Assembly (NCBI GenBank): GCA_964626795.1
Contig: CAZVIQ010000004.1
Span: 1-36,826 of the forward strand
Origin: an uncultured Muribaculaceae bacterium
GTDB taxonomy: Bacteria > Bacillota_I > Bacilli_A > RF39 > UBA660
DNA length: 36,826 bases
Direction of reading: 5' to 3'
Shown here: positions 21,696 to 25,230 of the stretch, in pieces
Layout: the number at the start of each line of letters is the position of its first letter
How positions within the stretch are numbered: position 1 is the stretch's first letter
Program-made: the position numbers and the translations under genes
Notes under the pieces: generated by a model
The model's database searches: none
What the model saw: only the letters and a program-made list of their open reading frames with translations
What the model was told of the DNA's origin: nothing

Positions 21696-23243
21696 TTATA
21701 AAGTTTCATTTAAGTTTATTAAGCTTTCTTTTTTGTTTTTATTATTAACTACTATTACCTCAGTTGTAAGTAGCATACTTGTGATACTTACACTGTTTTT
21801 AAGTGCAGTTGTGATTACATCAGTAGAATCGACTATTCCATTTTCCAGCATATAAACAAATTTTTCGTTATCCGCATCAAATCCTATTCCATATTCTTTT
21901 TCTTTCAGCTGATTCATTATTTCTTGTTCATTTAATCCAGCATTTAATAATATTTGTTTTAATGGAGCAAGTAAACTTTTTGAGAGAATATGATATCCAT
22001 AACTATTGTTCTCATTAAGTTTATTTGAAGCATAAAAATATGTAAGACCTCCACCAAAACTTATTCCACTTTTTAGTGCACATTTAACTGCATATATTGC
22101 ATCTTCGATTCTCATCTTTTTTTCAATTCTTTCAAGTTCAGTGCGAGATCCTACTTTGATAACTGCGGTTTTTCCTTTTAAATTTGAAATTCTTTCTTCA
22201 AAGATTTCTATTTCAAATTCACTTTCACTTTCTTTTATTTCTTTTTCTATATAACTAATTCTTGATTCTATTTTATCATCATTTAATTCCTCATTAATAA
22301 TAATAGTTTTTTCTTTATATATAATAATTTGTGAAGCCTTTCCAAAAGAAACTTCGTTATCGTAGTCTTTATTAATAAATATTGAAAGATCTTTTATCAG
22401 TTCTTTTCTTTTTTCCCCATAGTATGTGTTTTTAATTAGCAAGGTCTTTTGTGATGCATTCTTATTCGTATTTACAAAGTATTGTATAACATCTTCTTCA
22501 AAATCATCAGCAATTATTAGAATATTACTGTTTTCTTCAAGTAAAAATTCTACATCATTTAAACTGTCAATTGTTCTATTAAAAATATAAATTTTCACAT
22601 CACACAGAATAATCTCATTTGTATTTTCAGGAATTAAGTCATTAGAAACATATCCACTTTTAAATTCAAAGCCATTTATATAATCTAAATTTATATTTTC
22701 ATCATTACTGTTTTCAATGATTATATTACTGTTTTTAGAAGTGTTTTTTATTGCCTGAGAAATCAAATGACCAATTTCTATATCACCAGAAGATATTCTT
22801 GCAATTGATTCTATATCTTTTTCTGTTATATCTTTCTTACTTTGTGAATCAATAAATTCAAGAGTTTCATCTAAGGCTGCATTTAGTTCTTTATTCAGTT
22901 TAATAGGACTATAACCAGTATTTATAACTTCAAGCCCTTGATTAAACATTTCCTGAACAAGAACTAAAGAAGTTGTTGTTCCGTCACCTACAAGTTCGTT
23001 TGTTTTAATTGCAGCTTCTTTTACAAGTGTCACTCCTATATTTTTAATATCATCTTCCAATTCTATTTCTTTTGCGATTGTTACTCCATCATTTACTATT
23101 CTAGGATTTAAATAGTCAGTTACTAAAACCGCATTTCTTCCTTTAGGCCCCAATGTAACTTTAACTGCATCAGCAATAATATTGACTCCTTCTTTTAATA
23201 TTTCTCTAGCCTCGTTTCCATAAATCACTTCTTTTTTCATCAT
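21696..23243 (-). CDS. Divergent group I chaperonin (GroEL/Cpn60) paralogue without a GroES partner or GGM tail
   Basis: [111 protein letters not shown]. The start overlaps the upstream gene stop (ATGA). Confidence 0.85.
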
Positions 23244-24010
23244 ACACTCTCCTCAACTTCAAGTATATTTTTCCAATATTTTTTAGGCATAAAATTTCTC
23301 TGACATCTAAGATTTTTTCTTTCTTTTATATTGATATTCTTATAAAAACATTTCCATAAATTTTCATATTTATTTTCTTTTATTTTTAAATTAACACTTT
23401 TTTCAAAAGTTTCATCAGCATCTATAATTATAAATTCTTTTTTATTATATAGCGAAATCTTTTTATTCTTTGTATCCTGAATTATCCAGTTTTCATTTTT
23501 AAGCCTACTTTTAAAATAATTTGATACTATCTCTATTACATTATTGTCAGGTTCTATTTTTGAATATAGAATGTTGTTTTCAAGTTCAGTAAATCTTACA
23601 AAACCTTTAAATCTATGTGCTTCTCTCCTTACATTTCTAACTATGTTTTCCACCTCTAAAATTGCGTTTATACTTCTCATATAATTTACTTTTTCACCAA
23701 ATCTGAATAAATTTATTATATATTCTAAAAGTAAATTTTCTTTATTATCTTTATAAGATAAAAATGCTGTATAAACATTATGAAGTGAATATTCTGAAAT
23801 TCTTTTTATTCCTTCAATTACTCTATCCGACTTTTCATAATCAGTTGTTATAATCTTATAATCTTCAAATAAGTTTATTATATACTTTTTTTCTTCGGTT
23901 ATTAATTTAGGTATTATTTTGTATTTAAAACAAGTAAAAACCACTGTTAAGTATCCTTCAAAAGTTCCATCATATAAATATATTATTTCTTTTAATTCTA
24001 TTTTTTTCAT
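23240..24010 (-). CDS. Probable DNA metabolism protein, partner of the DNA-repair radical SAM protein (TIGR03915 / DUF4130-like)
   Basis: N-terminal [16 protein letters not shown] and C-terminal [21 protein letters not shown] match my recollection of this family. ATGA overlaps on both sides. Confidence 0.75.
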
Positions 24011-25230
24011 ATTCCCTCCTTAAATAATTCTAACTGTTCTATATGATTTGGGTATAATAAAGCTCTTTGGATTGTATTTCTTTCAAATGCTCTAGCACTT
24101 TCGTAATATTTACCATTACAAGTAATAAAATATTTAGCTCTTTTAAGTACTACTCCTATTTTCTTTAAAAGATTAAAATCCAGCTTCCCATATTTTCTTG
24201 TTGAAATAATCCTTTTGGCAGAATTAACACCTATTCCCGGTATTCGCAGAAGTGTAAGGTAATCCGCTTTATTAATTTCTATAGGATAGTTTTCCAAGTT
24301 TCTTAAAGCATAATCAAGTTTGGGATCTAAAAGTGAATTAAAATTCTGATTATTTTCATCTAAAAGTTCTTCGGATTTAAAACCATAGAATCTTAATAGC
24401 CAATCCGCTTGATATAATCGATTCTCTCTAAGTAATGGAGGCTTTTCTAGCATCGGTAAATTCTTATCTATATTCACCGGTACATAAGCTGAATAATAAA
24501 CTCTTTTTAGATTAAATTTATTATATAAACCTTCTGTTAGAGTTAATATTTTGTAATCAGTATCATTGGTTGCTCCGACGATAAGCTGTGTTGACTGTCC
24601 AGCAGGCACAAATAATGATTTCTTTTTTTCTGCTGTATTCATTTTTTTAGTATCATTTATCTGTTTCATTGAAGAAAAGATATTATCAGATTTTTTATCT
24701 GGTGCCAAAAGTTTAAGACTGTCATTTGAAGGAAGTTCTATATTTATGCTCATCCTGTCAGATAATAAACCAAGTTTATGAATCAGTTCTTTTGAAGCTC
24801 CAGGAATAGTTTTACAGTGTATATAACCATGAAAATGATATTTATTTCTTAAAAGCGTTATTGTTTCGATTAATTTCTCCATTGTGTAATCCGGATTTTT
24901 TATAACTCCAGAACTGAGAAACAAACCTTCTATATAGTTTCTTTTATAAAAATTTATTGTTAAATTTGCAATTTCTTCAGGAAGAAAAATTGCTCTATCT
25001 CTATTATTGCTTCTTCTATTAGTGCAGTACTTGCAATCATAAATACAATAATTAGTCATTAATATTTTCAATAGAGCTACACATCTTCCATCTTCAGTAA
25101 AGCTGTGACAGATTCCACTGTTGGTTGCAATTCCAAGACCATTTCCCCTTCTTTTGCTTCCGCTTGAACTGCAGGATGCATCGTATTTGGCTGCGTCTGA
25201 TAGTATTCTTAATTTTTCCATTAGTTCCAT
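24007..25230 (-). CDS. Putative DNA modification/repair radical SAM protein (TIGR03916-like)
   Basis: N-terminal AAKYDASCSSSGSKR, radical SAM motif CIYDCKYC, C-terminal helix-hairpin-helix LLRIPGIGVNSAKRII. GGTGA RBS. Confidence 0.85.
   Translation of the reverse strand: MELMEKLRILSDAAKYDASCSSSGSKRRGNGLGIATNSGICHSFTEDGRCVALLKILMTNYCIYDCKYCTNRRSNNRDRAIFLPEEIANLTINFYKRNYIEGLFLSSGVIKNPDYTMEKLIETITLLRNKYHFHGYIHCKTIPGASKELIHKLGLLSDRMSINIELPSNDSLKLLAPDKKSDNIFSSMKQINDTKKMNTAEKKKSLFVPAGQSTQLIVGATNDTDYKILTLTEGLYNKFNLKRVYYSAYVPVNIDKNLPMLEKPPLLRENRLYQADWLLRFYGFKSEELLDENNQNFNSLLDPKLDYALRNLENYPIEINKADYLTLLRIPGIGVNSAKRIISTRKYGKLDFNLLKKIGVVLKRAKYFITCNGKYYESARAFERNTIQRALLYPNHIEQLELFKEGI

Follow-up and report, generated by a model that had tools for sequence, protein, structure and literature searches.

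Why does a gene for a group I chaperonin follow directly behind the two genes of a DNA-repair radical SAM (rSAM)/DUF4130 pair, and what would a chaperonin do there? The locus lies in a 36,826-nucleotide stretch of bacterial DNA, analyzed here as a whole and referred to as the window. The initial annotation of the window read the third gene as a GroEL paralog that might serve a specific client.

Operon layout

Three minus-strand genes are chained by two ATGA stop/start overlaps (24007-24010 and 23240-23243), and a Shine-Dalgarno sequence stands upstream of each overlap (AAGGAGGG and GAGGAGAG):

24007..25230, minus strand: gene 1, TIGR03916 radical SAM/HhH protein, 407 aa (TIGR03916, PF04055, HHH_3)
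23240..24010, minus strand: gene 2, TIGR03915/DUF4130 partner, 256 aa, its start overlapping the gene 1 stop (TIGR03915, PF13566)
21696..23243, minus strand: gene 3, diverged group I chaperonin (Cpn60) of the rSAM/DUF4130-linked type, 515 aa (PF00118)

The open reading frames of 407, 256, and 515 residues were found exactly where they had first been placed, and all motifs cited at that stage, CIYDCKYC and GGG among them, occur in the translations. The ATGA at 23240-23243 joins the stop of gene 2 to the start of gene 3, hereafter Cpn60.

The radical SAM/DUF4130 pair

Gene 1 matches TIGR03916 over its full length (631.5 bits, cut-off 343.5), in agreement with the family first assigned to it, and contains three relevant elements:

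25024..25047, minus strand: radical SAM Cx3Cx2C motif CIYDCKYC (C62, C66, C69), read from the translation
24187..24285, minus strand: helix-hairpin-helix (HhH) DNA-binding region, residues 316-348, LLRIPGIGVNSAKRII (PF12836)
24022..24036, minus strand: QLELF, residues 399-403 at the C-terminus, a β-sliding-clamp-binding-type pentapeptide (motif pattern)

The HhH region, also part of the original assignment, scores below the Pfam cut-off of 27 on its own (PF12836, HHH_3; E=3.4e-5, 24.3 bits) and lies inside the full-length TIGR03916 match. QLELF is presumably a β-clamp motif, judged by the published consensus. The pattern Q-x-x-[LMFI]-[FWL] falls within the last 70 residues of 71/73 rSAM homologs, 37 of which have the strict form QL[SD]LF, against one loose and no strict match in a background of 26,904 residues from rSAM protein bodies.

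Gene 2 scores 246.7 bits against TIGR03915 (cut-off 112.25) and 161.6 bits against PF13566, bearing out its earlier identification as the partner of gene 1. Nothing beyond DUF4130 matched in its 256 residues, which hold no fusion to a UDG-like domain (TIGR03914). The DUF4130 reading frames of 80 Firmicute loci, at 235-335 aa, are too short for such a fusion. The rSAM gene is paired with TIGR03915 in every locus with intact downstream sequence that is not ended by the contig; locus L082 is the sole case with space downstream of rSAM yet no detectable DUF4130. A DUF4130:rSAM heterodimer has been predicted with AlphaFold 3 (preprint 10.64898/2026.08.19.745780).

Genes 1 and 2 are full HMM members of the SOS rSAM/DUF4130(/UDG) cassette (TIGR03916-TIGR03915-TIGR03914; COG4277-COG1573). 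In contrast to that cassette, the operon described here has no UDG domain, and its translationally coupled third cistron is Cpn60. UDG had been named in the initial annotation as the usual third member, and it does occur as a fusion to or neighbor of the pair in other phyla; Cpn60 has not simply been exchanged for it, however, since Firmicute loci without Cpn60 consist of the two genes alone. The papers found on the rSAM/DUF4130/UDG cassette do not mention a Cpn60 third cistron, and the searchable literature yielded no account of the cassette with a chaperonin in it, consistent with the original remark that no described case of a dedicated chaperonin in this position was known.

Cpn60 keeps the GroEL fold but not its client face

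Cpn60 is a full-length group I chaperonin, as first proposed, matching PF00118 at residues 23-500 (182.4 bits, cut-off 34.3) and NF009487 (447 bits, cut-off 352). Its AF2 model (pLDDT 86.7, pTM 0.79) has the three-domain equatorial/intermediate/apical fold, and the best Foldseek matches of the model are mtHsp60 and GroEL (TM 0.7-0.84). The ATP/Mg residues T30-P33, D52, D87-T91, D398, G414-G416, and D495 show no change in the window protein or in any of the seven clade members. Judged from these residues, Cpn60 appears to keep an ATP-binding and hydrolysis site in working form. The terminal β-strands that make intra-ring contacts are predicted (E4-8, E38-40, and E496-500), and the inter-ring contact residues A109, R452, E461, S463, and V464 are not conserved; Cpn60 may assemble into heptameric rings.

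Two regions depart from the canonical protein:

22170..22676, minus strand: apical domain, approximately residues 190-358, with the canonical GroES/substrate surface replaced (residue comparison)
21699..21743, minus strand: Asn/Lys/Glu-rich C-terminal tail instead of a Gly-Met tail (tail comparison)

The heavy apical divergence noted at the outset is evident in the canonical-invariant columns, 38% of which are kept in the apical domain versus 76% in the equatorial domain. Changes include (E. coli numbering) Y203D, F204L, L234E, deletion of L237/E238, V264N, N265T, R268N, R197S, and G375K. Within the hydrophobic apical set Y199, Y203, F204, L234, L237, L259, V263, and V264, only Y199 and V263 are unchanged, and L259 is conservatively replaced by Ile. 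The missing GGM tail had likewise been recognized: GM-rich tails are present in 0/55 representatives of the linked type, compared with 80/114 canonical GroELs. Linked-type C-termini instead end in a hydrophobic residue (49/55), preceded in most by an acidic one ([DE][LIFMV], 33/55).

Conservation of the three-gene unit

A neighborhood comparison confirmed that the adjacency is conserved in relatives. DUF4130 lies directly upstream of Cpn60 in 5/5 close relatives (45-72% identity) and, with the rSAM protein as query, in 21/80 loci from GTDB species; three further metagenome loci (L090-L092), found with two additional Cpn60 proteins, are linked too. The hosts include Breznakia, 'Mycoplasma sp. 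CAG:776', and Bacilli MAGs, and the cassette is present in cultured Breznakia pachnodae DSM 16784. Genes flanking the linked cassette vary from locus to locus. The stop codon of DUF4130 and the start codon of Cpn60 are mostly separated by -4 or -1 nt, and by +23 nt at most. Many gut Bacilli share this arrangement of three genes. In unlinked loci the pair is followed by various genes, frequently encoded in the other direction. Cpn60 is missing from the majority of rSAM-DUF4130 operons, among them those in close relatives belonging to the Clostridia, which shows that the pair can function in its absence.

Long matches among 150 representatives were inspected for fusions of Cpn60 to DUF4130 or to rSAM, and none turned up: the long proteins are two Cpn60s in tandem, an artificial fusion with hepatitis core, or proteins with unannotated extensions. 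A profile search of a 5.8-billion-protein collection with all linked Cpn60s was dominated, among the matches listed, by canonical GroELs, and these matches held no new member of the window clade. Metagenome scans gave zero matches with a single window-clade protein and, with the clade alignment, canonical GroELs only (≤40% identity), none of them of the window clade. The canonical GroELs from this last scan served as the control set for the groES and CIRCE counts given below.

Relationship to canonical GroEL

Canonical GroELs, that of E. coli included, form a group apart from every linked Cpn60 in 100/100 bootstraps, and the 515-residue protein sits on a long branch outside the canonical clade, as its description as a paralog had suggested. 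Linked Cpn60s are 30-44% identical to canonical GroELs, compared with 71% between canonical proteins. They have eight derived residues in common, seven of which are found in the window protein, and these signature residues are carried by 55 representative clusters at 50% identity. The term paralog would be apt on phylogeny and lost features.

Linked Cpn60s evolve under purifying selection (dN/dS = 0.14 for the closest pair). Cpn60 is the fastest-evolving gene of the three, with a mean pairwise identity of 39% compared with 45% for DUF4130 and 70% for rSAM. Cpn60 co-diverges with its operon partners: Cpn60 and rSAM identities are correlated (Mantel r=0.88), with 0/999 permutations as high. Cpn60s of the Breznakia group retain more canonical apical residues and may represent a separate or earlier recruitment. 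In a tree of rSAM plus DUF4130, monophyly of the linked loci is recovered in only 22/50 bootstraps, and an unlinked Clostridiaceae group adjoins Breznakia; the linkage may have arisen once and then been lost, or Cpn60 may have been recruited twice.

The initial annotation had also stated that Cpn60 lacks an upstream groES or CIRCE, and both observations hold. No groES was found in the window (blastp, tblastn) or in 88 loci, compared with 64/66 canonical controls in which it is present; the gene immediately upstream of Cpn60 is DUF4130, in place of groES. CIRCE is absent from the stretch running from the operon promoter to the beginning of Cpn60, and was detected in 0/25 linked loci versus 61/66 controls. 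The single CIRCE-like site of the window (14004-14030) lies upstream of an hsp20 gene (PF00011, 14070-14462). Once described as a perfect CIRCE, it is a perfect inverted repeat but differs at two positions from the consensus TTAGCACTC-N9-GAGTGCTAA. Its presence implies an HrcA regulon, and such regulons normally include groESL.

These data bear on whether Cpn60 is just the housekeeping GroEL, placed beside the pair by chance and evolving fast in AT-rich, reduced, or fast-evolving hosts. Such a reading would suit the public names of these proteins ('chaperonin GroEL' or '60 kDa chaperonin') and the Mycoplasma or Tenericutes labels of some hosts, but we consider it highly improbable. Both groES and CIRCE are missing from all 25 linked loci. 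Cpn60 has lost the GGM tail and GroES/substrate residues that never vary among canonical GroELs, and it falls short of the GroEL equivalog TIGR02348 (426.2 bits, cut-off 582.1). Cpn60 keeps its place behind DUF4130 in hosts that diverge widely, and evolution that is fast host-wide cannot explain the 39% identity of Cpn60, because the adjacent rSAM protein is 70% conserved in the same genomes. The HrcA regulon implied at hsp20 argues against this reading as well. Finally, where a bacterium has more than one chaperonin, a copy with a GM tail is reportedly always retained (PMC11978752).

A candidate LexA operator upstream of the operon

Two candidate regulatory elements were located upstream of gene 1:

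25274..25287, minus strand: LexA (Cheo-box)-like candidate operator CGAAAAAATGTTTG (consensus match)
25248..25276, minus strand: sigma-70-type promoter-like site, TTGCTA, 17-nt spacer, TATATT, with TG extension (consensus match, AT-rich DNA)

The box lies 57 nt upstream of the rSAM start codon, overlaps the -35 hexamer, has two mismatches to CGAAC-N4-GTTCG, and is identical in the relative L001. Cheo boxes with ≤2 mismatches occur between -150 and +30 of the rSAM start in 48/81 loci, compared with 6.7% of the upstream regions of other genes (Fisher p=2e-23; shuffles average 1.6 loci), while several linked loci have no such box at this threshold. The candidate operator would be in line with the LexA/DNA-damage-response regulation reported for the rSAM pair in other phyla (PMC8565304, PMC12392091, PMC3765255), namely in Bacteroidetes, Verrucomicrobia, Alphaproteobacteria, and Moraxellaceae (PMC12392091, PMC8565304). 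LexA control is probable, as judged from sequence, in this organism too. In the interval that separates the rSAM start from the divergent HTH gene, no other promoter-like site overlaps the candidate operator. The promoter scan returned 39 sites, against 29 expected in AT-rich DNA, and is uninformative on an internal promoter either way; no terminator-like site was found in the span scanned. The three genes are probably co-transcribed.

A link to spore DNA repair, raised in the initial annotation, is not supported, on three grounds: regulation is probably of the SOS type, with a LexA-type candidate operator; TIGR03916 was accompanied by no other significant family; and the cassette also occurs in hosts labeled Mycoplasma or Tenericutes.

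Cpn60 might instead be a general chaperonin of the SOS response, acting on several damage-induced proteins such as Y-family polymerases and housed in this operon merely to share a LexA-controlled promoter. The enrichment of LexA boxes is in keeping with such a role, as is the GroE-UmuC precedent in E. coli (PMC6590174). We nevertheless judge it quite unlikely: Cpn60 directly follows DUF4130 in every linked locus, with codons overlapping or nearly so, and is present in no other SOS operon among the loci examined. The apical hydrophobic surface needed for many clients is lost, and Cpn60 evolves faster than would be expected of a multi-client chaperone.

A proposed role for Cpn60

In the model that we favor, the three genes would form one LexA-repressed (SOS) operon. 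Gene 1 would supply a radical SAM enzyme with an HhH DNA-binding region and a β-clamp-type C-terminal motif; gene 2, its DUF4130 partner, is a predicted nucleotide or nucleic-acid binder; and gene 3 would encode a dedicated chaperonin of group I, translationally coupled on the shared mRNA. Cpn60 would have kept the GroEL fold and ATPase and lost the hydrophobic apical groove that binds GroES and unfolded proteins generally, its Gly-Met cavity tails having given way to polar tails with an acidic-then-hydrophobic end. With this groove lost and the tails swapped, Cpn60 most likely acts independently of GroES on a narrow set of clients. Divergent C-terminal tails are a mark of functionally diverged chaperonin paralogs (PMC11978752). 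The clients would most probably be the co-expressed rSAM/DUF4130 pair, which Cpn60 may fold, assemble, or stabilize upon its sudden induction after DNA damage, much as the SOS protein UmuC is stabilized by GroE (PMC6590174). That Cpn60 is SOS-induced, needs no GroES, and is devoted to the rSAM-DUF4130 complex is a proposal for which we see about equal grounds for belief and doubt. In hosts with reduced genomes Cpn60 could be the only chaperonin.

Instead of a foldase, Cpn60 could be a structural component built into the repair machine and driven by ATP, its ring holding rSAM-DUF4130 or acting on DNA or nucleoprotein through ATP-driven domain movements. The strict one-to-one translational coupling with DUF4130 and the co-divergence with both partners agree with this, as do a fully remodeled client-binding apical face and tails alongside a kept ATPase, and a conserved terminal [DE][LIFMV] peptide that resembles a docking motif. 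GroEL1 of Mycobacterium tuberculosis, reportedly nucleoid-associated and DNA-binding, would be a parallel. However, the pair functions without Cpn60 in most lineages, none of the 150 representatives is a fusion, and no DNA-binding feature was identified in Cpn60, all of which make a structural subunit rather unlikely. In the most specific form of this reading, Cpn60 would be an ATPase subunit that a clamp-tethered rSAM repair machine cannot do without, acting independently of GroES and docking its partners via acidic-hydrophobic C-termini; this, too, we regard as rather unlikely.

Comparison with other chaperonins

A dedicated chaperonin would have several partial precedents. Specialized GroEL paralogs include mycobacterial GroEL1, Myxococcus GroEL2, the nif-linked copies of rhizobia, and chlamydial GroEL2 and GroEL3; there too a group I chaperonin has been duplicated, its C-terminal tail altered, and its role narrowed or changed. 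The chlamydial proteins have no adjacent groES, like the linked Cpn60, which nonetheless scores only 85.2 and 125.9 bits against the chlamydial variant models NF038370 and NF038369 (cut-offs 600). In contrast to other paralogs, which stand alone or with groES, the linked Cpn60 is embedded in a two-gene DNA-repair operon, its apical binding groove itself is rewritten, and its hosts are Bacilli.

In E. coli, GroEL/GroES is likewise needed to stabilize a damage-induced DNA-transaction protein, UmuC (PMC6590174), but that chaperonin is the general heat-shock GroESL, whereas here a separate gene lies inside a putative damage-inducible operon and its product is without the GroES-binding features of E. 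coli GroEL. Phage-encoded GroEL homologs, for example gp146 of Pseudomonas phage EL, are independent of a co-chaperonin and serve a specific co-encoded client. The resemblance to gp146, drawn by description only, is that of a diverged Cpn60 with no Cpn10 partner, as proposed here; unlike gp146, the linked Cpn60 is bacterial and chromosomal and lies under a putative LexA-type operator.

Significance

The rSAM/DUF4130 pair is widespread, inducible by DNA damage, and uncharacterized in its chemistry. A conserved partner chaperonin offers an experimental route to it: co-expression could yield soluble enzyme, and pull-downs could show what the complex consists of. Cultured B. pachnodae DSM 16784 carries the cassette, and the predictions are therefore directly testable. 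The GroEL-like family described here comprises at least 55 clusters at 50% identity, is common in gut Bacilli, and is annotated as ordinary GroEL, which affects cpn60-based typing and the inference of a genome's housekeeping chaperonin. It is a clear case of a chaperonin paralog that is tied to a single operon and has kept its ATPase, its client face and tails having been rewritten, and bears on how chaperonin paralogs gain client specificity. Should Cpn60 prove to be a subunit of the repair machine, it would be the first chaperonin devoted specifically to DNA repair and would provide a handle on the function of the widespread TIGR03916/DUF4130 system.

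Operon structure

Three consecutive minus-strand ORFs, with coordinates and lengths exactly as given in the initial annotation, encode a radical SAM (rSAM) protein, a DUF4130 protein and a Cpn60 chaperonin. At both junctions the upstream stop and the next start overlap as ATGA, and a Shine-Dalgarno sequence lies just 5' of each (AAGGAGGG and GAGGAGAG).

Features of the cassette in the window
25274-25287, minus strand: LexA/Cheo-box-like operator CGAAAAAATGTTTG, overlapping the -35 hexamer of the operon's promoter-like site
24007-25230, minus strand: gene 1, rSAM, 407-aa ORF
24022-24036, minus strand: QLELF at the rSAM C-terminus, a QLSLF-type pentapeptide
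23240-24010, minus strand: gene 2, DUF4130, 256-aa ORF
21696-23243, minus strand: gene 3, Cpn60, 515-aa ORF

HMM searches bore out the family proposed for each gene. Gene 1 scores 631.5 bits against TIGR03916 (cut-off 343.5), and gene 2 scores 246.7 bits against TIGR03915 (cut-off 112.25) and also matches PF13566 (DUF4130). Gene 3 matches PF00118 (Cpn60_TCP1) and reaches only 426 bits against the GroEL equivalog model, for which the cut-off is 582. The rSAM N-terminus (25024-25170, minus strand) has three more cysteines (C20, C41, C50) before the Cx3Cx2C motif, which might serve as auxiliary cluster ligands.

Conservation of the linkage

A search of 5.8 billion proteins identified five close relatives of the window Cpn60 (45-72% identity), the remaining matches being ordinary GroEL at ~40%. 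A DUF4130 gene lies directly upstream in all five, while the flanking genes differ. For the match P0005, the upstream sequence extends over 50 bases only, and encodes the DUF4130 C-terminus with an ATGA overlap to Cpn60. In a wider neighborhood comparison, an rSAM query was run against one genome per GTDB species, and a Cpn60 ORF was found directly 3' of rSAM-DUF4130 in 21 of the best 80 loci. Among the hosts are two Breznakia species, one being B. pachnodae DSM 16784, which is in culture and has the cassette on contig NZ_JAUSUR010000005.1; 'Mycoplasma sp. CAG:776' is another, and MAGs of Bacilli, Erysipelotrichaceae and 'Tenericutes' are also represented. The same gene order recurs at three further metagenome loci (L090-L092), which encode two more distantly related Cpn60 proteins. 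Most loci have a spacing of -4 or -1 nt between the DUF4130 stop and the Cpn60 start, and none has more than +23 nt. At Clostridia, Tissierella and Oscillospiraceae loci, DUF4130 is the last gene of the operon, and what comes next differs between loci, in many cases lying on the opposite strand.

No paper tying a chaperonin to the TIGR03916/DUF4130 cassette was found in the literature searched, in agreement with the initial annotation, and NCBIfam holds no model for the linked variant. Altered tails have been described in specialized GroEL paralogues (PMC11978752), and the linked Cpn60s share this trait.

Relationship to canonical GroEL

A neighbor-joining tree was built from 38 canonical Firmicute GroELs, E. 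coli GroEL and 26 linked Cpn60s. In this distance-based analysis the canonical sequences, including that of E. coli, cluster tightly (mean identity 71%), and all 26 linked proteins are shut out of the cluster in 100/100 bootstraps. Among the linked proteins, three groups with long branches can be told apart.

Identity of linked Cpn60 groups to canonical GroEL
Window clade: 36%
Breznakia group: 44%
Large Bacilli/'Tenericutes' group: 30%

Eight derived residues are common to linked Cpn60s (V77A, A85V, T93L, G119E, L234S, D361E, L394M and V510I; E. coli numbering), at positions at least 85% conserved, and mostly invariant, in canonical GroEL; seven of them occur in the window protein. When 1.84 billion representatives were searched exhaustively by HMM, 55 clusters (50% identity) bearing the signature were recovered; one 90% cluster was seen on 140 contigs. 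Public names for these proteins are 'chaperonin GroEL', 'molecular chaperone GroEL' and '60 kDa chaperonin'. Two linked-type entries in the representative search, P0359 (1078 aa) and P0381 (1081 aa), are tandem Cpn60-Cpn60 polypeptides with two full chaperonin units each, and may be either genuine fusions or the product of merged gene calls.

Breznakia-type linked Cpn60s (loci L010/L011; representatives P0419 and P0472) retain Y199, Y203, L237, E238 and N265, are longer (~547 aa) with a tail ending in AGLY or AGLF, and have only three of the eight signature residues. From this intermediate character, it seems that they either are still early in their divergence or stem from a GroEL copy recruited independently to the same operon.

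Genomic context follows the same division. Canonical control loci from metagenomes have groES upstream in 64/66 cases, CIRCE in 61/66 and DUF4130 in 0/66. CIRCE was found at 0/25 linked loci and groES at none, upholding the reported absence of both at the window Cpn60. That the gene is a misplaced housekeeping GroEL is very improbable given this context and the tree. Housekeeping GroEL also behaves in reverse with respect to evolutionary rate, the linked Cpn60 being the fastest-evolving of its three genes.

The only CIRCE-like element in the window fronts an Hsp20 gene, neither groESL nor dnaK.

CIRCE-like site
14004-14030, plus strand: inverted repeat TTAGCACTT-N9-AAGTGCTAA, 5' of hsp20 at 14070-14462

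Described initially as a perfect CIRCE, it is indeed a perfect inverted repeat, but departs from the consensus by two compensating changes. It points to an HrcA regulon in this organism. Because of this operator, and because bacteria with several chaperonins reportedly always retain one GM-tailed copy (PMC11978752), the cassette genomes may be argued, indirectly, to have canonical groESL as well.

Conserved core and rewritten apical face

As initially described, the window Cpn60 has an intact ATPase core, a diverged apical region and no GGM tail. None of the ATP/Mg-binding or catalytic residues has been lost (T30-P33, D52, D87-T91, D398, G414-G416, D495). The AF2 model, with a confident pLDDT of 86.7, can be superposed on GroEL/Hsp60, and dN/dS for the closest Cpn60 pair is 0.14. 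Residues of the GroES/substrate groove that are invariant in canonical GroEL are replaced (Y203 to D, F204 to L, L234 to E, V264 to N) or deleted (L237 and E238), and N265 and R268 are likewise lost. Only 38% of canonical-invariant columns survive in the apical domain, versus 76% in the equatorial. An Asn/Lys/Glu-rich tail replaces the Gly-Met tail; among the 55 linked-type representatives, the last residue is hydrophobic in 49 and the tail ends in [DE][LIFMV] in 33.

Pairwise identities of Cpn60 and rSAM, taken over 19 complete loci, are correlated (r=0.88; Mantel test, reached by 0/999 permutations), with mean identities of 39% for Cpn60, 45% for DUF4130 and 70% for rSAM. A confident DUF4130:rSAM heterodimer has been predicted, with a nucleotide- or nucleic-acid-binding role assigned to DUF4130 (2026 preprint, 10.64898/2026.08.19.745780). 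With its ATPase intact, Cpn60 might be built into the repair complex as an ATP-driven subunit, a reading we consider unlikely. The same three groups come out side by side in a distance-based rSAM+DUF4130 tree. As an unlinked Clostridiaceae group lies beside Breznakia in this tree, the linkage may have had one origin followed by loss, or two separate recruitments.

Regulation and partner genes

Cheo-like boxes (at most two mismatches to CGAAC-N4-GTTCG, within -150 to +30 of the rSAM start) occur upstream of rSAM-DUF4130 operons across Firmicutes in 48/81 loci (p=2e-23), compared with 6.7% upstream of other genes at the same loci and an average of 1.6 loci in shuffles. This enrichment is in line with published LexA/damage regulation of the pair: the COG1573-COG4277 operon is reportedly LexA-regulated in several phyla (PMC8565304), and the rSAM/DUF4130 pair belongs to the Moraxellaceae DNA-damage regulon (PMC12392091) and has SOS-linked gene neighborhoods (PMC3765255). 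The SOS protein UmuC is known to depend on GroE (PMC6590174), a precedent for Cpn60 as a general SOS chaperonin; we regard this reading as improbable. The link to spore DNA repair offered in the initial annotation is not supported.

A QLSLF-type motif ends 71/73 rSAM homologues, in strict form in 37; the 26,904 residues of the rSAM bodies contain one loose and no strict match. The motif agrees with QL[SD]LF, which we take to be the beta-sliding-clamp-binding consensus, and suggests that the rSAM enzyme may be tethered to DnaN and act at replication forks.

Other features of the window

Beside a divergent HTH gene (25348-26055) lies a run of short gene remnants that looks like a decayed region.

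Gene remnants within 26075-27044, minus strand
HMA-domain protein with hydrophobic tail, 144 aa
C-terminal third of NTPase_I-T (DUF84), 82 aa
WYL-domain fragment, 84 aa

A zf-CDGSH/Fer4_19 iron-sulfur protein is encoded 4.3 kb from the cassette (16746-17408, minus strand); in the related locus L002, such a gene (2649-3314, minus strand) directly adjoins that of Cpn60. SufC/SufBD genes are located at 1433-3051. This arrangement could be mere synteny or could reflect Fe-S supply for the rSAM enzyme. Tandem paralogous hybrid histidine kinase/response-regulator genes (29162-30994 and 31515-33350, minus strand; 610 and 611 aa), followed by an Hpt-domain gene (28778-29152, minus strand), look like a phosphorelay cluster separate from the cassette finding.

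Proposed role of the linked Cpn60

Because the ATPase is intact, the client face and tails are rewritten and a Cpn10 partner is absent, we give roughly an even chance to the linked Cpn60 working without GroES as a chaperonin dedicated to folding, assembling or stabilizing the rSAM enzyme and its partner. On this model, LexA repression would be lifted upon DNA damage, after which all three proteins would be made from a single mRNA by coupled translation. The client, an Fe-S/TIM-barrel-type enzyme, would be helped together with its partner by the chaperonin encoded beside them.
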